Made by a program: the position numbers and the translations under genes
Shown: positions 27,218 to 42,074 of the stretch, one piece after another
Position numbering within the stretch: the first letter of the stretch is position 1
Layout: each line of letters opens with the position of its first letter
Assembly (NCBI GenBank): GCA_964371865.1
Contig: CAYJOR010000002.1
Coordinates: 56,465 to 120,464, forward strand
Source: an uncultured Desulfovibrionaceae bacterium
GTDB taxonomy: Bacteria > Desulfobacterota > Desulfovibrionia > Desulfovibrionales > Desulfovibrionaceae
Direction of reading: 5' to 3'
Length of the DNA stretch: 64,000 bases
Notes under the pieces: generated by a model
What the model was told of the DNA's origin: nothing
What the model saw: the letters and a program-made list of their open reading frames with translations, nothing else
Databases searched by the model: none

Positions 27218-28132
27218 ATGTTCCAAAGTACACTAGCAAAAACTGTTCAATTAAACGGAATAGGCTTACATTCAGGTGAAGAAGTTCGCATGAAGCTTTC
27301 GCCTGCACAAGCAAATTCTGGAATTATATTTACTCTACATTCTAAAAAAGGTGTATCAACTATAACTCCATCTCCGGAAGCAGTTACAACAACCGAGCTT
27401 GCAACCACATTAAGTATTGGTGACGCTTCATTATCAACAGTAGAACACCTTCTTGCTGCCATTCAAGGTTTGCAAATTGATAATATAAACATTCATGTTT
27501 ACGGAAATGAAGTTCCTATTCTTGATGGTTCTGCTCTACTTATTGTTGATGCAATACAAAAAGCTGGTCGTAAAACACTACCACAAGAAAGAGTATACGC
27601 TAAAATTACAAAACCTTTTTCTTTCATTGAAGGAAACAAAAGTATAGTTGCAAGACCTTATGATGGTCTATACATTGACTACACGATCGACTTTCCACAT
27701 CACTCTATAGGAAAACAAAGATATACAATAGATATCAATCAAAATTCATTCAAAGAAATTGCTAAATCTCGCACATTTGGATTTCTAAGAGAAGTTGAAT
27801 ACCTACACTCAAAAGGGCTAGCACTTGGTGGTTCTTTGGCTAATGCAATTGTCTTAGACGAAGAAGGCGTAATTAATCCTGATGGATTACGCCATTCTGA
27901 TGAGTTTGTACGTCATAAAATCTTAGATTTTGTTGGAGATATGGCAATGCTAGGTCTGCCACTACACGGTGCTTTTGAAGTTAAGTGTTCAGGCCATAAA
28001 CATAATAACCTATTCCTCCATGCACTTATCAAAAGCGATGCAATGGAACTTTCTAACGTAAATACTAAACAAATAAAGGATATGCACGAGTCTTATAACT
28101 GCATTCCACTCGTCGCTTATACAAGTATTTAG
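27218..28132 (+). CDS. lpxC: UDP-3-O-acyl-N-acetylglucosamine deacetylase
   Basis: QSTLAKTVQLNGIGLHSGEEV, TVEHLLAA, HKILDFVGD, GHKHN. Confidence 0.95.
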   Translation: MFQSTLAKTVQLNGIGLHSGEEVRMKLSPAQANSGIIFTLHSKKGVSTITPSPEAVTTTELATTLSIGDASLSTVEHLLAAIQGLQIDNINIHVYGNEVPILDGSALLIVDAIQKAGRKTLPQERVYAKITKPFSFIEGNKSIVARPYDGLYIDYTIDFPHHSIGKQRYTIDINQNSFKEIAKSRTFGFLREVEYLHSKGLALGGSLANAIVLDEEGVINPDGLRHSDEFVRHKILDFVGDMAMLGLPLHGAFEVKCSGHKHNNLFLHALIKSDAMELSNVNTKQIKDMHESYNCIPLVAYTSI

Positions 28133-28214
28133 GTTATTTTTTAAGAAATTTAGGAAAGTGTGATTTTTTTTCTTGACTATTTTTAAAAAAAGAACTATAC
28201 ATTCCAAATCATAC

Positions 28215-28291
28215 GCGCCCGTAGCTCAGTAGGATAGAGCAGTAGCCTTCTAAGCTATTGGTCAGGAGTTCGAATCTCTTCGGGCGCGCCA
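28215..28291 (+). tRNA. tRNA-Arg (anticodon TCT), CCA encoded
   Basis: Cloverleaf folded by hand: acceptor GCGCCCG/CGGGCGC, D arm GCTC/GAGC, anticodon stem GTAGC/GCTAT with loop CTTCTAA, T arm AGGAG-TTCGAAT-CTCTT, discriminator G, CCA. Confidence 0.93.
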
Positions 28292-28304
28292 CTTAAAAAA
28301 TAAT

Positions 28305-28330
28305 ACCTACTTTATGTAGGTTTTTTTTTG
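28305..28330 (+). terminator. Terminator after tRNA-Arg
   Basis: ACCTAC-TTTAT-GTAGGT followed by nine T. Confidence 0.5.
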
Positions 28331-28482
28331 CCTCATTTCTTCGTGAGAATTTCAAGGCATAGTTCAATAATTTGAACTTATAAAATAATTAGTAATATTT
28401 TTTGTACAGAATAATATGTATATTTGTATATAATTTTCAAACTTAAAAGTCATAATCAATTGAACATTGAAAGAGATTTTAG

Positions 28483-28511
28483 TTGACATAGACTTTAATA
28501 AATTATATAAT
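28483..28511 (+). promoter_or_regulatory. Candidate sigma70 promoter of the T1SS operon
   Basis: TTGACA-17 nt-TATAAT (both hexamers perfect), 57 nt upstream of the tolC-like ATG. Confidence 0.55.
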
Positions 28512-28568
28512 AATATATCTGGCAAAAACAAGTAACAACATGTAATAAATTTATTGTGAGGGATTGAC

Positions 28569-30101
28569 ATGAACTTCAAAAAACACATTCTACCGCTTAT
28601 TGCCTATACTGCTGTTGCACCTGTTGTAACTTTTTCTGCAGTAGAAGCTAATGCAGCAGAGGACGTACCTGCAGTTATCGCTCAAAATGAGCCAACAGTT
28701 GTAGTTGGATCTGATGAGATAACTCACCCATTAGTAATAACACCACTTTTAGAAACAGAAGCACCAAAAGTTTCACCACTTATTGATGCAGTAGAAATTT
28801 CAGTTTACGATTCAATGAAGGCTGTGTTGTATTACTCGCCAACTCTTCGTTCAATCAGAGAAAACAGAGTTGCTCAACAATACGAAGTTGAAAAAGCTAA
28901 ATCTGGCTACTATCCATCTTTAGACGTAACCGGTACTTACGGTGTAGCATATACTGACAACCAATCTACAAGAGACTTTGCTGAACGCCAACCTGGTAGA
29001 TACAGTAACTTCAACGGATCAGCTACAGCTTCCGCATCTGCAACATTAACTCAAATTCTTTGGAACGGCAAAATCGTTTCAAATACTGTCGACTACAACA
29101 TATTTGTTTTAGAATCATTAGATAACCGTGTATACGATAACGCAACAACACTTGCTCTTGAAGGCTTGATTGCTCATACTGATATCGTAAGAACTAAAAA
29201 AATTCTCGACCTCACAGTTAGCTATGTTGATAAACACAGAGAAATTCTTAATCAACAAATCGCTTTAAGTGCATCTGGTATCATGACAGAAGCTGATGTA
29301 ACTCAAGCTCAAGGTCGTTTGGTTCGTGCTACTGCTGATTTAAGAAATGCTGAAAACGCATACAAAAATTCAGTTAATAACTACGAACAACTTACAGGTC
29401 ATGAACTTCCAGTATACTTCTTAGATCCATCTCTTCCACAACAAGAAGTTCAATCACCTGAATCAATCATTAGCACAGCTCTAATGAGAAACCCTAAAAT
29501 CAATGCTTTACACTCAGATTATCAAGCAGCTTTCAAACAAATTGACATTGCTGAAGGTGGTTATCACCCAGAAGTAACTCTTACATTTGGTGCTGAATAC
29601 GATGATCCTTCACTCGAAGCGAACACAGGTAATAAAGAATACACAACTAGCGCATCTGCAACAGTTGGTGTATCTTGGAACTTATTTAACGGTTTTGCAA
29701 CACAAAATACAGTTCTCGCTGCTAAAGCAAGATCACGTATGGCGCGTGAAGACACCATCGCTCAAATTGATGCTGTAAAAACTGAAGCTATCCAAACTTA
29801 CAACGATCTTAAAAATGCTCAAGAACTTCGTACAGTTTATGAAGATGCTAAAATGTACAACTTAGCAACTAGAGATAACTACCTATCTCAGTTCTCATTC
29901 GGTACACGTTCACTTCTTGACGTTTTAGATGCTGAAACTGAACTTTACACAACTCAAGTGCAGCTAGCTACTTCTGAGTCAAACATTATCGTAAACTCAT
30001 GGAGAGTTCTAGCTCTTCAAGGAACTTTACTTGATGACTTGGATATAGAACCAACTGTATACGAAACTCCATTACCACCAGCATCATTTGATTTTGACTA
30101 A
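28569..30101 (+). CDS. TolC-family type I secretion outer membrane protein (LapE-like)
   Basis: Signal peptide. Two-repeat OEP architecture. First gene of the T1SS operon. Confidence 0.9.
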   Translation: MNFKKHILPLIAYTAVAPVVTFSAVEANAAEDVPAVIAQNEPTVVVGSDEITHPLVITPLLETEAPKVSPLIDAVEISVYDSMKAVLYYSPTLRSIRENRVAQQYEVEKAKSGYYPSLDVTGTYGVAYTDNQSTRDFAERQPGRYSNFNGSATASASATLTQILWNGKIVSNTVDYNIFVLESLDNRVYDNATTLALEGLIAHTDIVRTKKILDLTVSYVDKHREILNQQIALSASGIMTEADVTQAQGRLVRATADLRNAENAYKNSVNNYEQLTGHELPVYFLDPSLPQQEVQSPESIISTALMRNPKINALHSDYQAAFKQIDIAEGGYHPEVTLTFGAEYDDPSLEANTGNKEYTTSASATVGVSWNLFNGFATQNTVLAAKARSRMAREDTIAQIDAVKTEAIQTYNDLKNAQELRTVYEDAKMYNLATRDNYLSQFSFGTRSLLDVLDAETELYTTQVQLATSESNIIVNSWRVLALQGTLLDDLDIEPTVYETPLPPASFDFD

Positions 30102-30121
30102 AAAATAAAATTGGGAATACT

Positions 30122-32509
30122 ATGCAAACTAGCAATATGAAGACTGAGTCAGAGAATAAGCAACAAGAGAAAAATGGCAATTCACAACAAAGCCAACCAA
30201 CTAACAATTCTCCTAGTAATTCTGTAGATATTGGTCTTGCACCTCGCGAAGTTGATTTTTTCCCACCGTTAGTACAAAGTTTCTCGACACTTTTCTCCCT
30301 ATACGGGAGACAAGTGTCGAGCAATGCAATAAATTTTGCGCTTGGCAATAGCGCACCATCTCCTGCTTCATGCCAAAGAGCAGCGAAACAGCTTGGTCTT
30401 AACTCGCGTATTGTACATAAACCTGAAATACGTGAAATTTTAGATACCGTATTGCCATCAATCCTTATTCTTCAAAATCAACAATCTTGTATCCTTGTTG
30501 AGAAGAAAGGCGACACTGCACAGATTATTATGCCTGAACACGGCAATACTGTGACAATAATTGATATTGATAAATTACAAGAAATTTACTCTGGATATGC
30601 AATTTTTGCTGCATTAGATCCAATGGCCGACAAACGCCTTCATAGTATTGTAAAAATACAAACCAAACGTTGGTTCTGGGACGTTGTTTGGCATTATATT
30701 CCATTATACCGTCAAGTTATTATCGCTACAATTGCGATTAACTTACTTGTTCTTGTTGGTCCATTATTCTTTATGAACGTTTATGATAGGGTTGTTCCGA
30801 ACCTTGCTTACGATACCCTATGGGTTTTAGCTGTAGGTGTGCTAGTAGGTTATATCTTTGAATTTATTCTTAAGGTCTTGCGTTCAAACTTTACTGACAG
30901 AGCAAATAAAAACATTAATACTATTGTTACAACAAGATTGATGCAAAAAATCATGGAAATGCGTCTTGAAGATAGACCAGATTCATCAGGTGCACTCATC
31001 AACCACATGAAAGAATTTGAATCGTTGCAAGATTTCTTTAGTGCCGTAAGCTTACTTACAGTTATTGACTTGCCATTTATGATTCTTTTCCTATTTGTTG
31101 TATTCTTCATTGGTGGAAATGTTGTATACCTTCCAATCATAGCAATTATTATCCTGATATGTTCTATTCTAATACTTCAAATAACAATCAAAAAATTTAG
31201 TTTACTCAACCATCAATCAAACGTTGAAAAAAATGCTCACCTTGTTGAAATGATTACAGGTATGGAAGCTATTAAAATGGCAGTAGCTGAAAACCGTATG
31301 TTACAAATATGGGAAAAAGTTATAGCTTATTCAGCTGAAGTTGGTACAAATTCTAAAAGAACAACTACTCTTGCAGTTAACTTTGCAACTTTCGTAAGTC
31401 ATATTGTTTCAGTAACTCTTATTGTTTGGGGTGTTTATCTAATCGGTTCCCACAGTCTTACAATGGGTGGACTTATAGCATGTAACATTCTTATTGGTAG
31501 AGCAATGTCATTTGTTATGCAGTTAGCATCTCTCATGACTCGCTATCAACAAGCAAAAGTTTCATTGCAAGTTCTTAACCACTTGATGGAACTGCCTTCT
31601 GAACGTCACACAAGTTCACATCTTGTTGAATTTGGTGACTTACCTCACTCACTAGAACTCACAAAAGTATCCTTTGCATATAAAGGTGCGCACTTACCTA
31701 CAATTGATGACGTAAGTCTTACAATTAATCCGGGCGAGAAAGTTGGTATTATCGGAAACATGGGTTCTGGTAAATCAACAATGGCGAGACTTTTATGTGG
31801 TCTTTATACACCAACAGCAGGTGCTGTAAAATTTGGTGGTGTTGACTTACGTAGATTAGATATGTCAGAGCTTAGAACTCGTGTAAGCTTCCTTCCACAA
31901 GATCCATTACTCTTCCACGGAACCATTCGTGAAAACATTGCTCTTGGTTCGATTCATATTCCAGATCAGCTTGTAGTTAGAGCAGCTTGGATTGCTGGTG
32001 TGCATGAATTTGTTCAACACACTCCTGAAGGATATGCAATGCAAGTGGGTGAAAAAGGACAAAACCTCTCAGGCGGACAAAGACAAGCAGTTGCTCTAGC
32101 ACGTGCTCTTCTACATGACCCAGATGTAATTATCCTTGATGAACCAACAAGTAATATTGATGGAGCAACTGAAGCTAGAATCAAGTCAAGATTGAAGAAA
32201 ATCATTCAAAATAAAACTTTAATCATTAATATGCACAGAATGAGCTTGCTTGAACTCACAACAAGACTTATAGTATTACAAGACGGTAAGGTTGTTGCTG
32301 ATGGTCCTACTAAAGAAGTTTATGCGTGGCTAAATAGTAAACAACAAGCTCCAACAAGTAATCAACAGTCACCACAAGTAAAAAACACACTTGTAAATAA
32401 CTCACCGGGAAACACAGATCCTAGAAGAGTTATACCTAAAGAGGCTGAAGCAGAGAACGCTCAGGAAGAAGTAAAACCTGATGACTTTGTTAGAACTACA
32501 ACTGATTAA
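30122..32509 (+). CDS. Type I secretion ABC exporter (LapB/HlyB-like, N-terminal C39-like domain without catalytic Cys)
   Basis: Walker A GNMGSGKST, signature LSGGQRQAVALARA, Walker B IILDEPTS. Six-TM domain. Gln/Ser/Asn-rich N- and C-terminal tails. Confidence 0.92.
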   Translation: MQTSNMKTESENKQQEKNGNSQQSQPTNNSPSNSVDIGLAPREVDFFPPLVQSFSTLFSLYGRQVSSNAINFALGNSAPSPASCQRAAKQLGLNSRIVHKPEIREILDTVLPSILILQNQQSCILVEKKGDTAQIIMPEHGNTVTIIDIDKLQEIYSGYAIFAALDPMADKRLHSIVKIQTKRWFWDVVWHYIPLYRQVIIATIAINLLVLVGPLFFMNVYDRVVPNLAYDTLWVLAVGVLVGYIFEFILKVLRSNFTDRANKNINTIVTTRLMQKIMEMRLEDRPDSSGALINHMKEFESLQDFFSAVSLLTVIDLPFMILFLFVVFFIGGNVVYLPIIAIIILICSILILQITIKKFSLLNHQSNVEKNAHLVEMITGMEAIKMAVAENRMLQIWEKVIAYSAEVGTNSKRTTTLAVNFATFVSHIVSVTLIVWGVYLIGSHSLTMGGLIACNILIGRAMSFVMQLASLMTRYQQAKVSLQVLNHLMELPSERHTSSHLVEFGDLPHSLELTKVSFAYKGAHLPTIDDVSLTINPGEKVGIIGNMGSGKSTMARLLCGLYTPTAGAVKFGGVDLRRLDMSELRTRVSFLPQDPLLFHGTIRENIALGSIHIPDQLVVRAAWIAGVHEFVQHTPEGYAMQVGEKGQNLSGGQRQAVALARALLHDPDVIILDEPTSNIDGATEARIKSRLKKIIQNKTLIINMHRMSLLELTTRLIVLQDGKVVADGPTKEVYAWLNSKQQAPTSNQQSPQVKNTLVNNSPGNTDPRRVIPKEAEAENAQEEVKPDDFVRTTTD

Positions 32510-32596
32510 TAACTGAAGCTTTCCTTATTAGTACGATATATTAGGGACAAAAACCGTAATTCTAAATTACTACATTCTAGCTTATGAGAAATTACC

Positions 32597-34285
32597 ATGA
32601 ATAAAGAACAAAACACTAATATAGCAAAAAATCCTAAAGCAGGGAAAGACTACTCTCCTAAATCCGGTACTGATTACTCACCAAAAGCAGGAAAGGATTA
32701 TTCGCCTAAACCTGAAGTACAACCAGAACCTGCTAAAGAAGTTGTGCCTCAAACAGAAGCACCGAAAGTTCCTTTAGCTAAAATAGATCCAGTAAAAATG
32801 GCTGTGCCAGCTGATGCTGTTACTCAAAATGCTAATGGAGAAATTGAACTTTCTCCTGACTATATTGAAAAGAAAGACCAAAAACGCCCTGTTAATAGTG
32901 ATAAACTTCAACAGCAGAGCGGATCTGAAGCAGAAGAACTATTTACTGCTAAAAGAAAGAAGCCTACAAATGAAGAAAAAGAATATATGTCTGACATTGA
33001 CGCTGTTTGGAACGATACAGGTTCAACTCGTCAACGTGCAGTAACATTCCTTATTCTTGCACTACTCCTTAGTTTTATAGCTTGGGCTTCTTGGGCTACG
33101 ATTGATGAGCTTACAAGAGGACAAGGGCAAGTTATCGCATCTTCAGGAACTCAGGTTATCACTCACTTAGAGGGTGGTATTCTATCTGATATTCTTGTTA
33201 CAGAAGGTGTTATTGTTGAAGAAGGTCAAATACTTGCAAGAGTTGAAAACGTTGCGGCTGAAAGTGTGTACCGTGATACTCAAACAAAAATTTACGAACT
33301 CACTGCAACTATCATTCGTTTGGAAGCAGAGCTTAATGATACACAGCTACAGTACTCTCCTGAATTAATTTCTGCTGCTCCTAATATTGTTGAATTACAA
33401 ACTCAAGTATACAATACACGTAGACGTCAATTCTTATCAGAAATAGATGTTCTTGATACTCAAAGTCAGCAAGCTCACTACGAACTTGATGATATGGAAA
33501 AGAAACACCGCACTACAACTGAAGCTCTTTCTTTAGCATCGCGTCGTCTCGATCTCTCAAGACCAATGGTTGCTCAAGGTCTTTATGCTGAAGTTGACTT
33601 CTTAAACTTACAACAAGAAATTGTTAACCTGCGTGGCGAGCTAGATTCTCTTGAAAATAATATCTCAAAAGCAGAGATTGTTGTGCAAGAATCAGAACTT
33701 AAGAAAAATTTATTCAAATCTGAATATAACTCAAGAATTATTGAAGAAATCAATAAAATTACATCAGAACGTAACTCTTTAGAAAAGAACTTAACTACAG
33801 GTTCTGATAGAGTTGTGAGAACCGAAATCCGCTCTCCAATGCGTGGAGTTGTGAACCAAATTGTTCTCAACACAAAAGGTGGTGCCGTTAAGCCTGGTGA
33901 ACCAATCATGGAAGTTGTTCCTTTAGATGATACTTTGCTTATCGAAGCTAAAATTAGCCCTGCTGATATCGGTTTTATTTATCCAAATCAAAAAGCCGTT
34001 GTAAAGCTAACAGCTTATGATTTCTCTATCTTTGGTGGATTAGAGGCGAAAGTTGAGCAAATTAGTGCGGATACAATTCAAGGGCAAGGACAACAAGCTA
34101 ACGAATACTTTTATCTCGTAAAACTGCGTACAACTGAAAACAGCCTAGAGTATAGAGGTGAAACTCTACCTATTATCCCTGGTATGATTGCAAGTGTTGA
34201 TATTATTACTGGTAAAAAGACAATCATGCAGTATCTTCTCAAACCAATCTTAAAAGCTAAAGACAATGCTTTACGTGAAAGATAG
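32597..34285 (+). CDS. HlyD-family type I secretion periplasmic adaptor (LapC-like) with a long N-terminal extension
   Basis: TM helix at about aa 145-165 (AVTFLILALLLSFIAWASWA). Coiled-coil and lipoyl/beta-barrel segments. C-terminal GKKTIMQYLLKPI. Confidence 0.9.
   Translation: MNKEQNTNIAKNPKAGKDYSPKSGTDYSPKAGKDYSPKPEVQPEPAKEVVPQTEAPKVPLAKIDPVKMAVPADAVTQNANGEIELSPDYIEKKDQKRPVNSDKLQQQSGSEAEELFTAKRKKPTNEEKEYMSDIDAVWNDTGSTRQRAVTFLILALLLSFIAWASWATIDELTRGQGQVIASSGTQVITHLEGGILSDILVTEGVIVEEGQILARVENVAAESVYRDTQTKIYELTATIIRLEAELNDTQLQYSPELISAAPNIVELQTQVYNTRRRQFLSEIDVLDTQSQQAHYELDDMEKKHRTTTEALSLASRRLDLSRPMVAQGLYAEVDFLNLQQEIVNLRGELDSLENNISKAEIVVQESELKKNLFKSEYNSRIIEEINKITSERNSLEKNLTTGSDRVVRTEIRSPMRGVVNQIVLNTKGGAVKPGEPIMEVVPLDDTLLIEAKISPADIGFIYPNQKAVVKLTAYDFSIFGGLEAKVEQISADTIQGQGQQANEYFYLVKLRTTENSLEYRGETLPIIPGMIASVDIITGKKTIMQYLLKPILKAKDNALRER
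32636..32707 (+). repeat. 3 x 24-bp in-frame tandem repeat (K[AS]G[KT]DYSP) in the HlyD N-terminus
   Basis: The units 32636-32659, 32660-32683 and 32684-32707 encode KAGKDYSP / KSGTDYSP / KAGKDYSP with differing synonymous codons. Confidence 0.9.
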
Positions 34286-34979
34286 AATAGAGAATAAAAC
34301 TCCATATTTTATAGCTATTATCACTTCATTAAGAAGTTTAAAGATTTCTTATAAAGTAGTGACTAGTATACTAATATGTTTGTTTTTTTCAATATCAGAT
34401 GTAAGTCTGGCTTATTCCGCAGAGAAAATTCTTCTTTTTGGTAAGATGGAATTTAAAGGCAGAATAAAAACTCTACCTCAATGGGTAAAAGTTTTAGAAA
34501 AAAATTCTAAAAACCCAATCTTTTCTGATGATTATCAATTAAATTCAAAAACAACATGGGGTCAATTTAAGCAAGATCTTGTTCCCCTCTCTAAAAAAGA
34601 ACAACTAAATAAGGTTAATCTTTTTTGGAATAGATGGCCCTATAGACTAGATAGTCAGGTCTGGAAGACTCCAGATTATTGGGCAGCACCTTACGAATTC
34701 AAGAAAAATTCAGGCGATTGCGAAGATTATGCAATAGCAAAATACTTCACCCTTAAGGAACTTGGATTTTCTGTCGATGATATGCGTATAGTAATTGTTA
34801 TGGAAACAATCCGTAACATCGCACATGCTGTTCTCGCAGTATATTTAGATAATGATGTTTATATTTTAGATAACCTCTCAAATGCGGTGTTATCTCACAC
34901 GAAACTACGAAACTATGATGCTCAATATTCTGTTAATGAGAAATATCGTTGGGGTCATGTAAAAGCTAAAAAGAAATAA
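34266..34979 (+). CDS. Periplasmic transglutaminase-like cysteine protease (BTLCP, LapG-like)
   Basis: Signal peptide. Catalytic-type motifs GDCEDYA (Cys), AHAVLAV (His), ILDN (Asp). Overlaps the HlyD gene end by 20 nt. Confidence 0.85.
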   Translation: MLYVKDRIENKTPYFIAIITSLRSLKISYKVVTSILICLFFSISDVSLAYSAEKILLFGKMEFKGRIKTLPQWVKVLEKNSKNPIFSDDYQLNSKTTWGQFKQDLVPLSKKEQLNKVNLFWNRWPYRLDSQVWKTPDYWAAPYEFKKNSGDCEDYAIAKYFTLKELGFSVDDMRIVIVMETIRNIAHAVLAVYLDNDVYILDNLSNAVLSHTKLRNYDAQYSVNEKYRWGHVKAKKK

Positions 34980-34985
34980 TCTGAT

Positions 34986-37073
34986 ATGGAGTCAACAATG
35001 AAAAGTCCTGAACAGAACCAAAAATCTTCTGTTGCTAAAAAAAGGCAAGCTCTTGCTATTGTTGTTTGTTTGCTAATTGCAATATGTGGTGTTGCTTATT
35101 ATGTTTCAAATCTTAATTATGAAAAGAAAAAAGCTGATATTCTAAATGCTGAAAATATCAACCTTACAAGCTGGGTGCAAGGCACAATTCAAGCTATATC
35201 TATATGGGTAGAAAGTATTGATGAACAAGGTCAGCGTATCAGTAATTCTGATTCATACCGAGGCTTTATTGAAGATGTTAGGTTAGCTGGCGAAGATGTT
35301 GCCTCAGAAATCAACACTTCTGACATTGTTACTTCGCAACTTGATACAAATTATGATGAACTAATAGATCAAGTACCTTTCTGGCGTAGTGCTCTATATG
35401 ATTACATGAATAATATCGGCATGTTTGATGCACGTATAGTTAATGCTGATGCTGTAACTATACTCTCAGCACTTCAAATACCAACAGCTATTACACCGAA
35501 TCAAGTTCTTACTGTAAAAAAATCTATAGACAATAACAAAATTGCTATATCTCCAGTGCGCACATCAGCATCAACAATGGTTATCGACTATGCACTTCCA
35601 ATCCTTCCATTTGTTTATAATGAAAATGATCCACCAATAGCCGCGGTTCTTTTTACACTTCCTATAACAAATCAGATTGCGCAATTCTTATCACGTGATA
35701 TTCACGCTGAAACACAAACTATTCCGTATATTATTCAAAAAAATGGTGATTTGTATCAAAATATTCAAGTTCATACCCCAAAACCATCTGATATAACAAC
35801 TCAACTTGACTTTAACTCTTCCCAAATTTTACCATTTGGAATAAGAACATCAGTCGATGGAACAACTCAAGTTTATTCTTATGCAGAAAAAGTTCCTGGA
35901 CTTGATATGTGGGTTGTTCTTGAATTGCCTGCTGATGTCATTATCAATACCTTTACTTCTATGGCTTGGACTATTTATGGTCTTGGAGCTCTTGCAAGCA
36001 TTGGTGTTATCTTGTTGTTTGCTATGATTTGGTGGATGATGATTGGTAAAGAACAAAGAGAAGCTGCAGAAAAATTTAGAAAGCTTTATGATGTTATTGC
36101 ACAGCAAAAAGGATTACTAGATAGTATCAACCTTTCTCTAGAAGTTGGTCTTATAATGATCGATACTGATGGTAAAATCCAAATTTCTAACAAAACCTTT
36201 AATGAAATTGTAGGAAAAGATGAAGATGGTATGGTAGATGCTAGCTTACTTTCAGTATTTGAAGGTCAAGTTGCTGGTATCTTCATGGAGAAGGTTGATA
36301 AAGTTGTTGAAAATGATACTTATCTAACTTTTGAAGTTGAAATTCCGAAGCAAGACATTATTTCCCTTTACCGTGTAACACTCTATCCTTTCCATGATGA
36401 CTATGACGATGGTGTTGATATTCTAGGTGCAGTTGCTACCCTTCAAGATATTACAGAATTTAGACGTAATAGCGAAAAGAATAAGAAACAACAAGCTAAT
36501 ATTATTCAAGCATTTGTTCGCGCAATTGAGGGTGTGGATCCATATCTCACCGGTCACTCACAAATGATGAGTAACGTTGGTGTACTTATGGCAAAACATA
36601 TGAATATGACTGAAGAAGACATTTCTACTATTCATAATGCTTCTATCTTCTCGCAAATTGGTAAACTCTTCATCGATAGAGAAATACTTATCAAAACAGG
36701 CAAACTTACACCAGAAGAACTTACAAAAATCAAACACCTTCCTGAAAAAGCATATGAAGTTCTTTCCGGCATTGGTTTTAGTGCTCCTATTGCTACTGCG
36801 GTGCGTCAAATGTATGAACAACTTGATGGTAATGGATATCCAAATAAACTAAAAGATGAAGAAATAATTATTCCTGCACGAATTCTTGCTATAACAAACT
36901 CATTCTGTGCTCTTATTAGTGAGAGATCGTTTAGAGCTGGATTGCCAATCAATGAAGCAATTGGAAAACTTAAAGAATGTCCTAACCAGTTTGATCTTGA
37001 ACTTCTTAATGTTCTTACTGAAGTAATAAAAACTCCTGAAGGTGCTACTGCACTTACCGTTAATAAAGATTAA
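34986..37073 (+). CDS. Transmembrane sensor protein: periplasmic domain - TM - PAS-like - degenerate HD-GYP domain (putative LapD-analogous regulator)
   Basis: TM1 at about aa 22-42, a ~280-aa periplasmic region, TM2 (WTIYGLGALASIGVILLFAMIWWMMIG), a PAS-like block, and a C-terminal HD-GYP fold with DGNGYP. The HD is replaced by SQ (IFSQIGK), HHE by MYE, and D..DA by N..CA. Confidence 0.8.
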   Translation: MESTMKSPEQNQKSSVAKKRQALAIVVCLLIAICGVAYYVSNLNYEKKKADILNAENINLTSWVQGTIQAISIWVESIDEQGQRISNSDSYRGFIEDVRLAGEDVASEINTSDIVTSQLDTNYDELIDQVPFWRSALYDYMNNIGMFDARIVNADAVTILSALQIPTAITPNQVLTVKKSIDNNKIAISPVRTSASTMVIDYALPILPFVYNENDPPIAAVLFTLPITNQIAQFLSRDIHAETQTIPYIIQKNGDLYQNIQVHTPKPSDITTQLDFNSSQILPFGIRTSVDGTTQVYSYAEKVPGLDMWVVLELPADVIINTFTSMAWTIYGLGALASIGVILLFAMIWWMMIGKEQREAAEKFRKLYDVIAQQKGLLDSINLSLEVGLIMIDTDGKIQISNKTFNEIVGKDEDGMVDASLLSVFEGQVAGIFMEKVDKVVENDTYLTFEVEIPKQDIISLYRVTLYPFHDDYDDGVDILGAVATLQDITEFRRNSEKNKKQQANIIQAFVRAIEGVDPYLTGHSQMMSNVGVLMAKHMNMTEEDISTIHNASIFSQIGKLFIDREILIKTGKLTPEELTKIKHLPEKAYEVLSGIGFSAPIATAVRQMYEQLDGNGYPNKLKDEEIIIPARILAITNSFCALISERSFRAGLPINEAIGKLKECPNQFDLELLNVLTEVIKTPEGATALTVNKD

Positions 37074-37080
37074 TGAATAA

Positions 37081-37122
37081 AGCCATGCAGTTTTTTACAC
37101 TACTGCATGGCTTAGTTAAATT
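37081..37122 (+). terminator. Terminator after the T1SS/Lap-like operon
   Basis: GCCATGCAGT-10 nt loop-ACTGCATGGC, a perfect 10-bp stem, followed by a T-rich tail. Confidence 0.6.
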
Positions 37123-37143
37123 TCTAAACTAAACGGAAAAGAC

Positions 37144-38346
37144 ATGAAAATTCTTTTTATTTCAAAATATTGTCCTTCTCATTTTCAAAATATTCTTTTG
37201 TACTTTTCTGTTAACCCTCAAAATCATATACACTTTTTTTCTGAATACAGGCATCAAGAACTAGCATTGAAAAATGTTACTTATACAAATATTAGATTCC
37301 CGCGTGTTCAGTATAAAGGAAGTAAATCGGAACAGACATCTATTAGGCTACTACGACGTTCTTTAGCGTTTTCAAACGCCTTAGATCGACTAAAAAATAC
37401 TGGGTTCACACCTGATATTATAGTTGCTGATACAAACCACGCTTGCTCTTTAAACTTGCCTGAAATTTTCCCTAATGTTCCAACAATTGGATTTTGTGAA
37501 TGGTTTTTCCAAAGTGATCTTTCGCCTAATCTTGATAAATCTGAAGAAGATTATTCACCAGAGTTTTTACCATTTAAAATTAATAATATGTTTCAACTTG
37601 AAACTTTAAGAACTTGTACAAAACTCTTCACTTTTTCTCAATGCCAAAAAAAATCTTTTCCAGAATTTATACAAAAGAAAATATCTGTAATTCCTCAAGG
37701 CATTAATACAGACTTCTTTGCACCAAAACTAGAAAAGAATAAAATACCATCTTTTTTAAATGGGTATGAAGACAGCGAAATAGTCTTACTTTCTTATAGA
37801 AATACAAAAAGCGAACAGACTCTTTCTGTTGCTCTAAACGCTTTGAAAGAAATTTTTAGAAGTAGAAAACAAACGAAATTACTTCTTTTATCAAGAGCAA
37901 ATGTAAATCCAGAAGAATTGCAAAAAGTATTACACCAAGCACAGCAAGTACTTGGAGAATTTAGCAATCGCATAATTGTTCACACAGGAGCAACCATAGA
38001 AGAGTATAAATTCGCCCTTCTAAGAGCTAGAGTACTACTCTATCCATTCAATATGCTTTTTGTGAATACATCGCTTTTTGAGGCATTCAGCTGTGCAACA
38101 ACTGTGATAGCACAACAGTCTCCAGCTCTAGAAGAGTTTATTACACATGGAGAAAATGCCTATTTTCATGCTTATGATAGACCGGATACATTAGCGCAAT
38201 TAGTAGAAGAAGTTCTAAATGATCCGAATTTATCGAAAAATCTCAGAACACAAGCACGAAAACAAGCAGTTACATCATTGTCAATAAAAACCGAGCTAAG
38301 AAAAATCGTTAAAACTATTGAACCTTTTATCCAACAAGAGAATTAA
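37144..38346 (+). CDS. GT-B fold glycosyltransferase (group 1 / GT4-like)
   Basis: C-terminal E-x7-E-like region SLFEAFSCATTVIAQQSPALEEFITHGENAYF. 400 aa. Confidence 0.6.
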   Translation: MKILFISKYCPSHFQNILLYFSVNPQNHIHFFSEYRHQELALKNVTYTNIRFPRVQYKGSKSEQTSIRLLRRSLAFSNALDRLKNTGFTPDIIVADTNHACSLNLPEIFPNVPTIGFCEWFFQSDLSPNLDKSEEDYSPEFLPFKINNMFQLETLRTCTKLFTFSQCQKKSFPEFIQKKISVIPQGINTDFFAPKLEKNKIPSFLNGYEDSEIVLLSYRNTKSEQTLSVALNALKEIFRSRKQTKLLLLSRANVNPEELQKVLHQAQQVLGEFSNRIIVHTGATIEEYKFALLRARVLLYPFNMLFVNTSLFEAFSCATTVIAQQSPALEEFITHGENAYFHAYDRPDTLAQLVEEVLNDPNLSKNLRTQARKQAVTSLSIKTELRKIVKTIEPFIQQEN

Positions 38347-38702
38347 TCGTTTTTGCTAAATGCGAGAAGTACATTTTCAATAATAGCTAAAGCAAGTTTT
38401 TGATCTTTTTTAGATAACTTCTCAAGTTGATCACTTAAGTAATTTGATCTAGTTTCTGTGCTTTCATTTTCACTACGGAATAAGTCGAGCACTGAACACT
38501 CTAAAACACTAGCTAAAGATTCTAATCTTGAGAATTTAGGTGCTATAACACCCTTTTCCATACGAGAAAGAGATTCTTGTTCAATTCCAAGCATAGAAGC
38601 AACTTCAACTTGTGTATATCCTAGTCTTCTTCTTTTACTTGCTATTTTGTTTCCAACTCGTTGTGCCAATGTTAAATTGTTTTCATTTTTTCTAATAGCC
38701 AT
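38343..38702 (-). CDS. XRE-family HTH transcriptional regulator
   Basis: RVGNKIASKRRRLGYTQVEVASMLGIEQESLSRMEKG is a Cro/C1-type HTH. 4-nt tail-to-tail overlap with the glycosyltransferase gene. Confidence 0.85.
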   Translation of the reverse strand: MAIRKNENNLTLAQRVGNKIASKRRRLGYTQVEVASMLGIEQESLSRMEKGVIAPKFSRLESLASVLECSVLDLFRSENESTETRSNYLSDQLEKLSKKDQKLALAIIENVLLAFSKND

Positions 38703-38929
38703 ATCGACCTCTCTCTGTTATATAGCCTTTTCAATAAAAAGTTTTTTACTGAATTAAACTACTATTATCTGAATATATACTTTAAAGTATAGATTCTTTA
38801 TAACTATATAAACACTATTTCTAAATTATGCAATAGACATAACATACTAATTTTATATACTATTTTTTTACAGAGTTCTATCTATTTGTACTTCTTAGTT
38901 AAAACTTTATAACTTTTTACGATTAACTA

Positions 38930-38985
38930 AAAAAAATACATTCTTTATAGTTATTTCTAACCACAAAGAATGTATTATTTTTTTA
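38930..38985. terminator. Bidirectional terminator downstream of the ACT-domain gene
   Basis: ATACATTCTTT (38936-38946) / AAAGAATGTAT (38965-38975), flanked by an A-run and a T-run. Confidence 0.6.
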
Positions 38986-39030
38986 AACATCTTATTATAT
39001 CAAGATAATATAAATTTCAAAAATATTTTT

Positions 39031-39048
39031 TATACGTATATACGTATA
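39031..39048. repeat. Perfect 18-bp palindrome TATACGTATATACGTATA
   Basis: Self-complementary by inspection. Lies 44 nt downstream of the ACT gene stop. Confidence 0.9.
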
Positions 39049-39091
39049 AGGTGTAAAAACTGATATTTTGAACAGTGTAAGCAGATATAGC

Positions 39092-39481
39092 TTATGCCTC
39101 TAAACATTTCACAGCTGCGTCAAGGTCGGTAGGGCGCAAAACAAGTGTTGCTTTTTCTGTGCAAGGTTTAATAAACACATACATATATTCTACGTTCACA
39201 CCACAGTCGGTAAGCTTTTTCATTGCTTTATGCAAACCACCTGGAATGTTATCAACTTCTACTTCCATTACTTTTGAAAGTCGAACTGTAACGTTATTCT
39301 CTTTAAGTATATCTGAAGCTTTTTTTGCATCATCTACAATTAAACGTAGAATGCCAAAGTCAGAAGTATCAGCTAGCGATAAGGCTTGTATACTGATTTG
39401 AGCCTCAGCAAGCAATGCTGTTATCTCTGTAAGGCGCCCTGGTTTATTCTCAAGAAAAACAGAAATTTGATCTATAATCAT
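39092..39481 (-). CDS. ACT domain-containing (amino-acid-binding-type) protein
   Basis: QISVFLENKPGRLTEITALLAEAQISIQALSLADTSDFGILRLIV is a typical ACT unit, and a second unit follows. Confidence 0.75.
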   Translation of the reverse strand: MIIDQISVFLENKPGRLTEITALLAEAQISIQALSLADTSDFGILRLIVDDAKKASDILKENNVTVRLSKVMEVEVDNIPGGLHKAMKKLTDCGVNVEYMYVFIKPCTEKATLVLRPTDLDAAVKCLEA

Positions 39482-39518
39482 AGCATGTCCTTTATCTATA
39501 TGTGCTGAAATCTATAAT

Positions 39519-39719
39519 TTATACTTGAGAAGAATCGTCATCTTTCTTCTGTTCTTTTTTTGGTGTTACATCAATTTCATCAGGTTCAGTTGAAGCCTGT
39601 TTGAAGTTACGAATTGCTCTGCCAAGCCCACCACCGATTTCAGGTAGTTTTTTTGCCCCAAAAATAACAAGAACCAAAAGTAAAATTATTAGTAGTTCTT
39701 GTGTGCCAAGTCCGAACAT
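39519..39719 (-). CDS. tatA: Twin-arginine translocase subunit TatA/E
   Basis: [40 protein letters not shown]. Confidence 0.9.
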
Positions 39720-39815
39720 ACACCCTCCTTACGTTAGCTGTATATAATCATAAGTTTTGAAGACTATAGTCTATTTAACAAAATAAGGCAAGTCTTTATA
39801 GACTTGCCTTTCATT

Positions 39816-42074
39816 TTAGCCGCAGCGTGAATGTGAACAAGATGGGCAAATATGGCATCCTTCTTGGAAAACCATATCTTCGCCGCATTCAGGACATTGC
39901 ACTTTACCATCTAATGATGAATTACTACTTAATTTTTCGCTAGTAGCTTTAAGATATTTAGTTTCAAGCACCCATGCAATAGCATCAGGCACAGAAAGGA
40001 GCATACCTTTTTTCTGGAATACAGGGTGTTCACCACCGATTCCTTTAAGCTGACTTACAATAGATTTAACATCAATGCCAGATCTTAACGCAAGTGAAAC
40101 AAGTCTGCCAATAGCTTCTGCTTTTGCTGTTACTGAACGACCAGATTTTCCGATAGTTGCAAATACTTCAAAAGGTACACCATTTTCATCTTCATTTACT
40201 GTAAGATAAAGAACACCTAAGCCAGTTTGCATTTTTTGTGTGAAACCGGTTAAACGATCAGGGCGTTCTCTTACTACTATATGAGATTGAGATAAATCAA
40301 GATTTTGACTATGTTTTTTCTCTGTTTCGCCTGTATAAAGAACTTGAATAGATTTGCTTCCATCACGATATACTGTTACGCCTTTACAGCCTAATGAGTA
40401 CGCAAGACGATAAATTTTATCAATATCTTCAACAGTTGCAGAGTTTTCAAGGTTTACAGTTTTTGAAACTGCATTATCAGTATACTTTTGGAAAGCTGCT
40501 TGCATACGTAAGTGAGCTTCAGGAGAGATATCCATTGCTGTTACGTAAACATTACGCATTTTTTCTGGAAGAACATCAATTTTTTTAATGCTACCGTATT
40601 GAGCTAAAGCTTCCATAATTTCAGGTGATTGCAAATTATTACTTGCAAGTTCGCGCTCAAAGTAAGGGTTTACTTCTAAAAGTCTTTCACCTTCCATTAC
40701 ATTTTTAGCAAAACAAAGAGCAAACAAAGGTTCTACACCTGAAGAACAAGATGCAAGAATTGAAAGAGTTCCTGTAGGAGCAATTGTTGTAATAGTTGCG
40801 TTACGTAATGGTGTGCCACCTGCAAAGATTGACTCTTCAAATGCTGGGAATGCACCACGTTCTTTAGCTAATTGAGCAGATGCAACTCTACCTTCTGATT
40901 GAATGAAGCCCATAATTTTTTCAGCTAAAAGTACAGCTTCATCTGTATCGTAACCAAGTTCAAGCATGAATAGAAGGTCAGCAAAGCCCATAACACCAAG
41001 ACCGATTTTACGGTTAGTAAGAACTTTTTCTCTAATCAAGTCAAGAGGATACACAGAGGCATCAATTACGTTATCAAGAAAACGAACTGAAAGATGAATT
41101 GTGTTCTTTAGTCCTTCCCAGTCAATACATTTTTCAGGATTATCAACACAATTTGTCGGAAGATAGAACTTTGCAAGGTTGATAGAACCTAAGTTGCAAG
41201 CTTCAAACGGAAGAAGTGGTTGCTCGCCACAAGGGTTAGTTGATTCCATATCACCTTGAGCAGGAGTTGGATTGTCTTTATTGATTCTATCTAAGAAAAC
41301 AATTCCAGGGTCACCACTTTGCCAAGCTTTTTTTACTAGGATATCAAACACTTCTTTAGCGTTTAATGTACCTTTGATTTCATTAGAATGAGGGTCAACT
41401 AAGTTATAATCTTCGCCTTTTTCAACTTTTTCCATAAATTCTTCTGTAAGACCTACGGAAAGGTTAAAGTTATTGAATTCACCATCAACTTCTTTAGCTG
41501 CGATAAATTCCATAATATCAGGGTGGTTTACACGTAAGATACCCATGTTAGCTCCGCGACGAGTTCCACCTTGTTTGATTTGTTCAGTCGCAGTATTGAA
41601 AATACGCAAGAATGATAAAGGACCGGAAGCCACGCCACCGGTTGTTCCCACGCGTGAATCTTTTGGGCGTATACGAGAGAATGAGAAGCCTGTACCGCCA
41701 CCGGATTTATGAATCATAGCTGCATATTTTACAGCGTCAAAAATTTCTTCAATTGAATCGCCAACAGGAAGAACGAAACAAGCAGCTAGTTGACCTAAAC
41801 GAGTGCCGGCATTCATAAGAGTTGGTGAGTTTGGCAAAAATTTACCATGATTCATTAAATCATAAAAATTACGAGCCAATTCTTCAATTTTATATGTACT
41901 TTCAGGATATTTATTTTCTTCAAGCGCCATTGTAGAAGCTACACGCCAAAAAAGTGCTTTTGCATCTTCAGCAGGCGCTCCATTTTCATCTTTAATATAG
42001 TATCTTTTTTGTAATACTAGTTCCGCATTCGCCTGTAAATGCGTATTTTCTAAGTCAGTTGGCATAGAAAGCAT
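39816..42074 (-). CDS. nrdJ: Adenosylcobalamin-dependent (class II) ribonucleotide reductase
   Basis: FLPNSPTLMNAG, NPCGEQPL, TIAPTGT and a C-terminal Cys-rich zinc ribbon (CPECG...CPSCSHSRCG). 752 aa. Confidence 0.93.
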   Translation of the reverse strand: MLSMPTDLENTHLQANAELVLQKRYYIKDENGAPAEDAKALFWRVASTMALEENKYPESTYKIEELARNFYDLMNHGKFLPNSPTLMNAGTRLGQLAACFVLPVGDSIEEIFDAVKYAAMIHKSGGGTGFSFSRIRPKDSRVGTTGGVASGPLSFLRIFNTATEQIKQGGTRRGANMGILRVNHPDIMEFIAAKEVDGEFNNFNLSVGLTEEFMEKVEKGEDYNLVDPHSNEIKGTLNAKEVFDILVKKAWQSGDPGIVFLDRINKDNPTPAQGDMESTNPCGEQPLLPFEACNLGSINLAKFYLPTNCVDNPEKCIDWEGLKNTIHLSVRFLDNVIDASVYPLDLIREKVLTNRKIGLGVMGFADLLFMLELGYDTDEAVLLAEKIMGFIQSEGRVASAQLAKERGAFPAFEESIFAGGTPLRNATITTIAPTGTLSILASCSSGVEPLFALCFAKNVMEGERLLEVNPYFERELASNNLQSPEIMEALAQYGSIKKIDVLPEKMRNVYVTAMDISPEAHLRMQAAFQKYTDNAVSKTVNLENSATVEDIDKIYRLAYSLGCKGVTVYRDGSKSIQVLYTGETEKKHSQNLDLSQSHIVVRERPDRLTGFTQKMQTGLGVLYLTVNEDENGVPFEVFATIGKSGRSVTAKAEAIGRLVSLALRSGIDVKSIVSQLKGIGGEHPVFQKKGMLLSVPDAIAWVLETKYLKATSEKLSSNSSLDGKVQCPECGEDMVFQEGCHICPSCSHSRCG

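Follow-up and report, generated by a model that had tools for sequence, protein, structure and literature searches.

A probable Dvh-type, c-di-GMP-gated type I secretion and adhesin-release locus in an uncultured low-GC Desulfovibrionaceae bacterium

The Dvh system of Desulfovibrio (Nitratidesulfovibrio) vulgaris Hildenborough, encoded by DVU1012-DVU1020, consists of the adhesin DvhA, the type I secretion system (T1SS) DvhEBC, the protease DvhG and the receptor DvhD (Karbelkar et al. PNAS 2024, PMC10990149; Font et al. Nat Commun 2026, PMC13090378). Cleavage of giant adhesins by DvhG has been demonstrated, and the D. vulgaris receptor DvhD has been shown to bind c-di-GMP (Kd about 0.3 uM) without hydrolysing it (PMC10990149, PMC13090378). 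[quoted passage not shown]

In the 64 kb stretch of DNA analysed here (the window), five ORFs on the + strand (28569-37073, in agreement with the first-pass annotation) form a dvh-like cassette, with successive intergenic gaps of 20, 87, -20 and 6 nt. The cassette is preceded by lpxC and by tRNA-Arg(TCT) at 28215-28291, and is followed by a glycosyltransferase gene.

28483-28511, + strand: sigma-70-type promoter-like site, TTGACA-17-TATAAT, 58 nt upstream of the first start codon
28569-30101, + strand: TolC-like outer-membrane channel (dvhE/lapE-like), 510 aa, PF02321 OEP
30122-32509, + strand: T1SS ABC permease/ATPase of the LssB/LapB type (dvhB-like), 795 aa, TIGR03375
32597-34285, + strand: HlyD-family T1SS periplasmic adaptor (dvhC-like), 562 aa, TIGR01843
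34266-34979, + strand: DvhG-type BTLCP (LapG-like) predicted calcium-dependent Cys protease, 237 aa, PF06035
34986-37073, + strand: DvhD-type putative c-di-GMP receptor, 695 aa, PDB matches 9RC2, 9RC0 and 9RBZ
37144-38346, + strand: GT4-family retaining glycosyltransferase, 400 aa, PF12000 + PF00534

The locus is very probably the orthologue of the D. vulgaris Dvh locus, a c-di-GMP-gated two-step type I secretion/adhesin-release module in an uncultured low-GC member of the family. Because the host belongs to the Desulfovibrionaceae, in which Dvh was described, the resemblance points to an orthologous locus and not to a parallel invention. The first-pass annotation had proposed five co-directional genes behind a perfect TTGACA-17-TATAAT promoter, and both the ORFs and the 12/12 promoter match were verified; Pfam and NCBIfam profile searches reproduced the domain make-up it gave for the five proteins. 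Its analogy with D. vulgaris held as well, with a receptor that matches DvhD and a protease 52% identical to DvhG, and its suspicion that the class had already been described was correct, the Dvh system having been published (PMC10990149, PMC13090378). The promoter-like site was the sole 12/12 match in the 11.8 kb scanned (28100-39900), a region in which the total number of promoter-like sites was not above that of shuffled sequence. The nearest relative (L001) retains the -35 hexamer and the spacing, with TATGAT as the -10 element, and the consensus match suggests that the site functions as a promoter.

The TolC-like protein matched OEP (162 bits) and scored 203 bits with TIGR01844, under the cut-off of 225; its N-terminus carries a hydrophobic, signal-like segment (residues 7-25). 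The ABC exporter runs from a 48-aa low-complexity N-terminus through a Cys-less C39-like domain to the transmembrane and nucleotide-binding domains, which were found as ABC_membrane and ABC_tran. The Peptidase_C39 match was weak (21.1 bits, slightly under the 22-bit cut-off), the C39-like domain aligned to PDB 3B79 (E=2e-5), and the only cysteines in residues 1-190, C84 and C123, both lie off the catalytic position. By its profile scores the exporter is a member of the LssB/LapB adhesin-exporter subfamily (TIGR03375, 829.7 bits versus a cut-off of 693), and of neither HlyB (440 versus 726) nor bacteriocin_ABC (287 versus 524). The adaptor matched the type I HlyD family TIGR01843 (365 bits versus a cut-off of 209), and has a low-complexity cytoplasmic N-terminus of ~145 aa with KAGKDYSPK repeats and a single TM segment (146-170).

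The start codon of the protease gene overlaps the adaptor stop by 20 nt. Its product scored as a BTLCP/LapG-family protease, as had been proposed for 34266-34979 (Peptidase_C93/BTLCP, PF06035, 63.6 bits versus a cut-off of 27), was 52% identical to D. vulgaris DvhG over 189 aa (E=2e-70) and aligned to the LapG structures 4FGO and 4U65. The catalytic triad and Ca site are retained (D151-C152-E153, H187 and D202), and the N-terminus is signal-peptide-like. Unlike DvhG of D. vulgaris, the 237-aa protein has neither a TM anchor nor the ~180-aa disordered linker, and this short form prevails among DvhG orthologues (Dvh-system paper).

The first-pass annotation had also placed an HD-GYP protein in the slot of LapD, as in D. 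vulgaris, and the full-length homology to DvhD bears this out. The receptor comprises TM1 (~18-44), a periplasmic dCache domain (~65-320), TM2 (~325-355), a PAS domain (385-494) and a degenerate HD-GYP domain (510-672), the last two represented in Pfam by PAS_4 and HD_5. It matched the DvhD crystal constructs 9RC2 (dCache, E=4e-24), 9RC0 (PAS/HD-GYP, E=9e-47) and 9RBZ (HD-GYP, E=1e-38), with 28% identity to full-length D. vulgaris DvhD over 691 aa (E=1e-95). The HD motif is replaced by S556-Q557 and HHE by M609-Y610-E611, while GYP is retained; SQ, CQ or SH occupies the HD position in all 90 DvhD-like ORFs of 80 related loci. Since HD has become SQ as in DvhD and the HH metal ligands are gone, the fifth protein is predicted to be a c-di-GMP receptor and not an enzyme, its binding of c-di-GMP being suggested by homology. 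Among the eight contacts of the canonical c-di-GMP site, four are identical (Y520, L574, Y618 and R647), two are conservative (L643 and F649) and two are changed (K582 to L579, and E668 to C665 with E664 adjacent). All three residues of the 'bridging' site differ (K520 to V, P567 to D and R569 to E), and the stoichiometry and cooperativity of c-di-GMP binding may therefore differ from those of DvhD. The gene begins 6 nt after dvhG, and most related loci likewise have a dvhG next to the dvhD-like gene, apart from DvhG-less paralogue clusters. The annotated ORFs of the window included no GGDEF gene.

The glycosyltransferase gene, taken at first for a mere downstream flank, proved to be a conserved neighbour of DvhD-like genes. 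It is co-directional with the cassette, and the 70 nt that separate it from dvhD hold no terminator-like site. Three different gene orders place a PF12000 + PF00534-type gene directly 3' of a DvhD-like gene, an arrangement present in 28 of the 33 loci that could be evaluated and have a T1SS alongside, versus 4 of the 31 that have none. In the AF2 model (pLDDT 85.7) the protein adopts a GT-B fold, with MshA, BshA and PglA as the closest structures. The gene thus probably belongs to the cassette as its sixth member and is probably co-expressed with it. The main text of neither Dvh paper mentions a glycosyltransferase (PMC10990149, PMC13090378), and no such gene has so far been counted among the components of the Dvh system.

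On the model of D. vulgaris, the LssB/LapB-type ABC protein, the HlyD adaptor and the TolC-like channel would export a large adhesin, the N-terminal retention domain of which would remain in the periplasm and plug the channel. The secreted DvhG-type protease would then release the adhesin by cutting at [T/A/P]AAG behind the retention domain. The DvhD-type receptor in the inner membrane would bind c-di-GMP through an HD-GYP domain devoid of catalytic activity and signal inside-out via PAS, the TM helices and dCache, such that DvhG would be restrained at high c-di-GMP. The substrate gene would lie outside the window, elsewhere in the genome.

The absence of a giant adhesin beside the cassette, reported in the first-pass annotation, extends across the whole window: no ORF exceeds 1184 aa, the largest being housekeeping genes (RNR, IleRS, LeuRS, PNPase, FAD/Fe-S oxidoreductase and MCP), and none contains RTX-like repeats. 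This is less out of the ordinary than first suggested, as none of the 80 related loci has an adhesin-like gene within 10 kb of its DvhD-like gene and rtxA of L. pneumophila is likewise unlinked. A profile search with the N-termini of DvhA and DVU1545 returned four short fragments only and no candidate substrate. A module that has lost its adhesin, leaving the T1SS, protease and receptor genes as idle or decaying relics, would account for the lack of an adhesin in the window and near every locus of the low-GC clade, where the unusually low GC content (0.32-0.39) may accompany genome reduction. However, all six ORFs are intact, and their dN/dS values relative to L001, at dS of 0.7-0.9, are 0.072 for the TolC-like protein, 0.025 for the ABC exporter, 0.043 for the adaptor, 0.070 for the protease, 0.053 for the receptor and 0.091 for the GT4 protein, similar to the neighbouring lpxC (0.062) and prmC (0.095). 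The protease keeps its catalytic and Ca residues, and the receptor most of its canonical c-di-GMP contacts (6/8 identical or conservative). Furthermore, the cassette is complete in low-GC relatives (L001, L002, L004, L005, L007 and L008; four relatives), is broken off at contig ends in the remaining loci of L001-L010, and persists intact, in differing genomic contexts, in clade members whose DvhD identity is as low as about 52-55%. Purifying selection on the cassette is strong, so that it is not decaying. The adhesin is likely encoded elsewhere in the genome, unlinked. Of the two options first offered, a substrate elsewhere or an orphaned module, the former is thus retained and the latter is very improbable (dN/dS 0.03-0.09).

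The fifth gene could instead encode a catalytically active HD-GYP phosphodiesterase or a conventional sensor that lowers c-di-GMP on binding a periplasmic ligand and does not gate the protease; the strong HD_5 match (119 bits), a match to an NCBIfam c-di-GMP phosphodiesterase family (E=6e-26), the intact GYP and the dCache and PAS domains, which are typical of sensors, are all compatible with such a role. Yet the NCBIfam match, at 91, falls well short of the cut-off of 400, the metal ligands for catalysis have been replaced (HD by SQ, HH by MY), the same substitutions leave D. vulgaris DvhD inactive in vitro (PMC10990149, PMC13090378), and the gene adjoins dvhG here and in most related loci; we give this reading only a slight chance. 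Export of a product other than a giant LapA/DvhA-like adhesin, such as a smaller, glycosylated protein of the surface or matrix to whose production GT4 contributes and whose maturation or release DvhG and DvhD control, fits the tight and specific linkage of GT4 to T1SS-adjacent DvhD-like genes, the ABC-MFP-DvhD'-GT4 clusters without DvhG at L070, L072, L076, L077 and L080, and the lack of giant adhesins near the related loci. We nevertheless consider it unlikely: giant repeat genes are often absent or broken in short-read MAGs, the ABC protein is of the LssB/LapB adhesin-exporter type, the protease resembles a proven cutter of giant adhesins, and large adhesins are common neighbours in RefSeq Dvh neighbourhoods (cluster 5, Supplementary Data 1). 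An orthologue of Dvh that acts on an unlinked adhesin remains the preferred reading.

Compared with the Dvh system of D. vulgaris, the locus belongs to the same family of bacteria and has the same gene order (T1SS, then dvhG, then dvhD), a receptor with dCache, PAS and degenerate HD-GYP domains and SQ for HD, a BTLCP protease with the D-C-E Ca/catalytic motif, and an ABC exporter with a C39-like domain. It differs in that dvhA directly precedes the T1SS genes there whereas no adhesin is adjacent here, in the unconserved bridging residues and low DvhD identity, and in the GT4 gene after dvhD. With the P. fluorescens Lap system it shares the logic of a T1SS-anchored adhesin, a periplasmic BTLCP protease and a c-di-GMP receptor that signals inside-out from the inner membrane, and the proteases have their fold and catalytic residues in common; in contrast, the receptor is unrelated to LapD (no LapD_MoxY_N, HAMP, GGDEF or EAL domain) and the protease scored 95.9 bits against a LapG equivalog cut-off of 320. 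L. pneumophila has a canonical LapD but shares an ABC exporter of the LssB subfamily (TIGR03375) and an unlinked substrate gene, with rtxA, lssBD and tolC-lapDG forming three loci in strain Paris. An unlinked substrate therefore has a precedent, since Legionella rtxA is separate from the secretion and regulatory genes; the T1SS and lapDG are split there, whereas T1SS, protease and receptor form one operon here.

The six-gene cassette in this low-GC Desulfovibrionaceae bacterium most likely serves the c-di-GMP-gated release of an adhesin anchored in its type I secretion system (T1SS), as predicted by homology to the D. vulgaris Dvh system. The first-pass annotation had read the locus as Lap/Dvh-like, which was correct; the class was published in 2024 (PMC10990149, Karbelkar et al.) and 2026 (PMC13090378, Font et al.) for the DvhA adhesin, DvhEBC T1SS, DvhG protease and DvhD receptor of Desulfovibrio vulgaris Hildenborough. 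Its five cassette ORFs were recovered at the same positions, all on the forward strand and tightly packed, with successive intergenic gaps of 20, 87, -20 and 6 nt, and profile searches confirmed the five family assignments. Together with the glycosyltransferase gene that follows, the features are:

28569-30101, + strand: TolC-like channel (OEP/TolC profile)
30122-32509, + strand: ABC permease/ATPase (TIGR03375, C39-like N-terminus)
32597-34285, + strand: HlyD adaptor (TIGR01843)
34266-34979, + strand: DvhG-type BTLCP protease (PF06035)
34986-37073, + strand: DvhD-type receptor (PAS_4 and HD_5)
37144-38346, + strand: GT4 glycosyltransferase (PF12000 and PF00534)

The previously proposed TTGACA-17-TATAAT promoter is present at 28483-28511. 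No other site within the 11.8 kb scanned matches at 12/12 positions, and promoter-like sites as a whole are no more numerous there than in shuffled sequence; in the nearest relative, MAG CAYJEN01 (locus L001), the -35 element and the spacer length are unchanged, and the -10 hexamer reads TATGAT. The flanks were also as annotated, with tRNA-Arg(TCT) and lpxC upstream of the cassette and the GT4 gene downstream. Rfam matched the tRNA alone; the leader gave no hit to a riboswitch or to any further RNA element. Recent horizontal acquisition was considered and rejected, the cassette having the same GC content (0.34-0.37) as the remaining window. A small HTH_3 (Xre-type) regulator gene at 38343-38702 (- strand) is convergent with the GT4 gene, with a 4-nt overlap at the GT4 stop codon, and is followed by a gene for a pair of ACT domains at 39092-39481 (- strand).

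The secretion machine is of the adhesin-exporting type, as had been proposed. The ABC exporter scored 829.7 bits against the LssB subfamily model TIGR03375 (cut-off 693.1) and stayed below the cut-offs of the HlyB model (440 against 726) and of the peptide-cleaving bacteriocin exporter model (287 against 524). Its N-terminal C39-like domain matched a Vibrio parahaemolyticus structure (3B79, E=2e-5) and lacks the catalytic Cys, since residues 1-190 hold only C84 and C123, both off the catalytic position; the exporter thereby combines the subfamily match with the Cys-less C39-like domain that mark the LssB/LapB type. The adaptor is a type I HlyD protein (TIGR01843, 365 bits; cut-off 209). Both proteins begin with low-complexity cytoplasmic extensions, which had no match in a Pfam search: that of the exporter is 48 aa here (30122-30265) and ~350-690 aa in related MAGs (for example L017:523-2600, L029:652-2750 and L066:4740-6100), and that of the adaptor is ~145 aa (32597-33030), with KAGKDYSPK repeats. 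The long exporter extensions of the related loci were examined as possible fused glycosyltransferases and discarded, being low-complexity, rich in Ser/Thr/Ala/Lys and free of Pfam matches.

The 34266-34979 product scored as a BTLCP/Peptidase_C93 protein, in agreement with the earlier assignment (PF06035, 63.6 bits; cut-off 27). It is 52% identical to D. vulgaris DvhG over 189 residues (E=2e-70), aligns to structures 4FGO and 4U65, and keeps the D151-C152-E153 calcium-binding and catalytic motif with H187 and D202, that is, the Cys-His-Asp triad and the flanking calcium-binding Asp/Glu. Against the LapG equivalog model NF045674 it reached 95.9 bits, below the cut-off of 320; by sequence, the protease is a relative of DvhG rather than a gammaproteobacterial LapG. 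At 237 aa it is short, and its N-terminus resembles a signal peptide, whereas D. vulgaris DvhG has a TM anchor and a 180-residue linker; signal peptides are predicted for most DvhG orthologues by the authors of the Dvh studies (PMC10990149 / PMC13090378).

The absence of LapD was borne out, as no LapD_MoxY_N, HAMP, GGDEF or EAL domain was found in any locus protein (E<=0.01). In its place stands a predicted receptor with the DvhD architecture: a dCache domain between two TM helices, followed by PAS and an HD-GYP domain without metal ligands. Residues 65-320, flanked by hydrophobic segments at ~18-44 and 325-355, align to the periplasmic dCache domain of DvhD (9RC2, E=4.1e-24), and the cytoplasmic part (PAS_4, 34.9 bits, cut-off 23.1; HD_5, 119 bits) aligns to the PAS/HD-GYP construct (9RC0, E=8.6e-47) and to the HD-GYP domain with bound c-di-GMP (9RBZ, E=1.4e-38), all three structures having been deposited with Font et al. 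(PMC13090378). Identity to full-length DvhD, taken from the supplement of that paper, is 28% over 691 residues (E=1e-95). Because the 9RBZ alignment is gap-free, residues of the two proteins can be mapped onto each other directly. In place of the HD dyad stands S556-Q557 (DvhD likewise has SQ), HH is replaced by M609-Y610 (MN in DvhD), and GYP is retained. The canonical c-di-GMP contacts of DvhD are Y523, L577, K582, Y621, M646, R650, Y652 and E668 (PMC13090378); four of these eight are identical in the receptor (Y520, L574, Y618, R647), two show conservative replacements (L643 for Met, F649 for Tyr) and two are changed (L579 for K582, with K581 nearby; C665 for E668, with E664 adjacent). All three residues of the bridging site in the DvhD dimer stalk, K520, P567 and R569, are replaced (V517, D564, E566).

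A scan of species-representative genomes with the receptor profile yielded 80 related loci (L001-L080), nearly all from Desulfovibrionaceae (uncultured MAGs, Mailhella, Bilophila, Desulfovibrio and Lawsonia), and these loci contain 90 DvhD-like ORFs. The HD position reads SQ, CQ or SH in all 90, R650 is invariant and K520 is conserved in none. From this conservation pattern, therefore, catalytic inactivity and the canonical c-di-GMP site look like hallmarks of the family, and the bridging site looks like a peculiarity of D. vulgaris, a question that Font et al. left open (PMC13090378). In the D. desulfuricans / D. falkowii type (L037-L064), the GYP Tyr that makes the Y621 contact is replaced, giving GQP, GLP, GEP or GNP, and Y523 is Asn; the motif is GSP or GTP in a second MAG clade. 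Two of the published contacts, Y621 and Y523, are therefore not family-wide. The closest relative, L001, shares 92% DvhD identity and the same synteny (prmC, lpxC, cassette, GT4), and about ten low-GC MAGs (GC 0.32-0.39) share the TolC, ABC, MFP (HlyD adaptor), DvhG, DvhD and GT4 cassette, some in other genomic contexts. GC content is 0.30-0.39 in the window and the L001-L010 clade, against 0.53-0.66 in the Desulfovibrio, Bilophila and Mailhella loci; the L001-L010 MAGs all come from one project (ERP123703). The label Thermoguttaceae on L013 (GC 0.55) looks doubtful, as the locus groups with Desulfovibrionaceae.

No giant adhesin adjoins the cassette, as the first-pass annotation had noted: the largest ORF in the 64-kb window is 1184 aa, and the large ORFs are all housekeeping genes. 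No substrate of the LapA/DvhA type, a large protein defined by a retention domain at the N-terminus, a [T/A/P]AAG cleavage site and an RTX/T1SS signal at the C-terminus, turned up in the 64-kb window or, in the 80 related loci, within 10 kb of the DvhD-like gene in either direction; this 10-kb span would miss an adhesin lying farther upstream if T1SS genes separate it from dvhD, as in D. vulgaris. Regular-expression scans of window ORFs of at least 60 aa and of ORFs of at least 80 aa in the 80 loci gave no RTX nonapeptides, and [TAP]AAG matches only in EF-Ts and short spurious ORFs; a profile built from the N-termini of DvhA and DVU1545 (PMC13090378 supplement) returned just four short fragments. 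Large ORFs in the related loci were examined as adhesin candidates and set aside as CheA, CarB, PEP-utilising enzymes, a GGDEF/EAL sensor, a giant flagellin or antisense artefacts in high-GC DNA. At L013:1-2841, an ORF of more than 947 aa is rich in Thr/Ala/Asn/Gly and has the typical C-terminal domain of a flagellin; it lies ~2 kb upstream of ABC-MFP-DvhG-DvhD, with an alpha/beta hydrolase gene between. In a RefSeq survey, large adhesins are frequent Dvh neighbours (cluster 5, including 'DVU1012 family biofilm structural adhesin'; PMC13090378). Since the survey records such neighbours and none was found near the DvhD-like genes here, adhesin adjacency is common, not universal; further substrates may be encoded elsewhere, according to the Dvh authors (PMC10990149 / PMC13090378).

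The first-pass annotation had offered, as an alternative to a distant substrate, that the module is orphaned. This reading, a decaying cassette, is disfavoured by the substitution rates: against L001, all six genes have dN/dS values of 0.025-0.091 (dS ~0.7-0.9), comparable to lpxC (0.062) and prmC (0.095), so that the cassette is, to judge from these ratios, maintained by selection and not a relic. The same purifying selection suggests that a substrate for it exists. That this substrate is something other than a giant adhesin is disfavoured in turn by the LssB/LapB type of the exporter, with its 829.7-bit TIGR03375 match. Likewise disfavoured is the reading of the fifth gene as an active phosphodiesterase instead of a receptor; an HD-GYP domain is kept, but an active enzyme has intact HD and HH motifs, and here HD has become SQ and HH has become MY. 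Under the favoured reading, adhesin release controlled by c-di-GMP, c-di-GMP would be bound by the inactive HD-GYP domain of the DvhD-type receptor, whose dCache domain would hold the protease in check; a drop in c-di-GMP would then let the protease cleave the adhesin behind the retention domain.

The GT4 gene had been treated as a mere flank, a view that we revise. It is co-directional with dvhD and begins 70 nt after it, with no terminator-like site between, and it is a recurrent DvhD neighbour (L001-L010, L016-L036, L055/56/63 and L070/72/76/77/80). A PF12000 and PF00534 gene lies directly 3' of a DvhD-like gene in three gene orders: T1SS-DvhG-DvhD-GT4 (low-GC clade, Bilophila), T1SS-DvhD'-GT4-DvhG-DvhD (second MAG clade) and ABC-MFP-DvhD'-GT4 without the protease (termite-gut Desulfovibrio and Mailhella MAGs), where DvhD' is a second DvhD-like paralogue. 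Among evaluable loci, GT4 directly follows the DvhD-like gene at 28 of the 33 that have a T1SS next to it, compared with 4 of the 31 that lack one, counts that are phylogenetically non-independent; four exceptions to the association are cut by contig ends. The link between GT4 and T1SS-adjacent DvhD-like genes is real in these data. DvhD' lies between the MFP and GT4 genes (L016-L035, L058, L059, for example L018:5935-8013; L070, L072, L076, L077, L080), is ~25% identical to the window receptor and likewise has SQ for HD. Some genomes carry ABC-MFP-DvhD'-GT4 without DvhG there and a separate DvhG-DvhD locus, such as MAG DXAN01 (L077 and L012) and JAISOT01 (L072 and L046).

The GT4 sequence had no match in the PDB, and its AF2 model has a generic retaining GT-B/GT4 fold with MshA, BshA, PglA and glycogen / sucrose-phosphate synthases as neighbours; distant PF12000 homologues from other phyla (Methylobacillus, Thalassovita, a bioreactor contig) occur without T1SS context. 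A literature search for any connection between a glycosyltransferase and the Lap or Dvh systems returned nothing relevant, and no such enzyme is named in the main texts of PMC10990149 or PMC13090378, although the neighbourhood table that Font et al. supply does contain glycosyltransferase names. In that table (Supplementary Data 1, webFlaGs), several 'glycosyltransferase (family 4)' proteins from Pelagibius, Fodinicurvata and D. piger fall in the T1SS ABC permease/ATPase homology cluster, which may reflect GT-ABC fusions or loose clustering. We tentatively raise the rather doubtful possibility that GT4 is a functional part of a Dvh-type subset whose substrate is unlinked, glycosylating the adhesin in the cytoplasm ahead of its export by the T1SS, or supplying a glycan partner, possibly under control of a DvhD-type protein. 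If so, DvhD', T1SS and GT4 acting independently of DvhG would bring c-di-GMP input to type I secretion or glycosylation beyond protease gating. The conserved GT4 gene, and DvhD' in T1SS clusters that lack a protease, may each hint at c-di-GMP control over a step of glycosylation or secretion.

Taken together, recent publications account for the locus, which does not represent a new type of system; what is still novel is modest and lies in the presumed unlinked substrate, the non-conserved bridging site and the conserved GT4 partner. The Dvh adhesin-release system is thereby extended to an uncultured, unusually low-GC lineage of Desulfovibrionaceae, and the locus serves as a natural experiment on which features of DvhD are indispensable, with SQ conserved, the canonical c-di-GMP site largely so and the bridging site not. 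Among known systems, Legionella pneumophila has rtxA, lssBD and tolC-lapDG at three separate loci, and the Dvh system of D. vulgaris, which belongs to the same bacterial family as the locus here, has already been reconstituted and structurally characterised.
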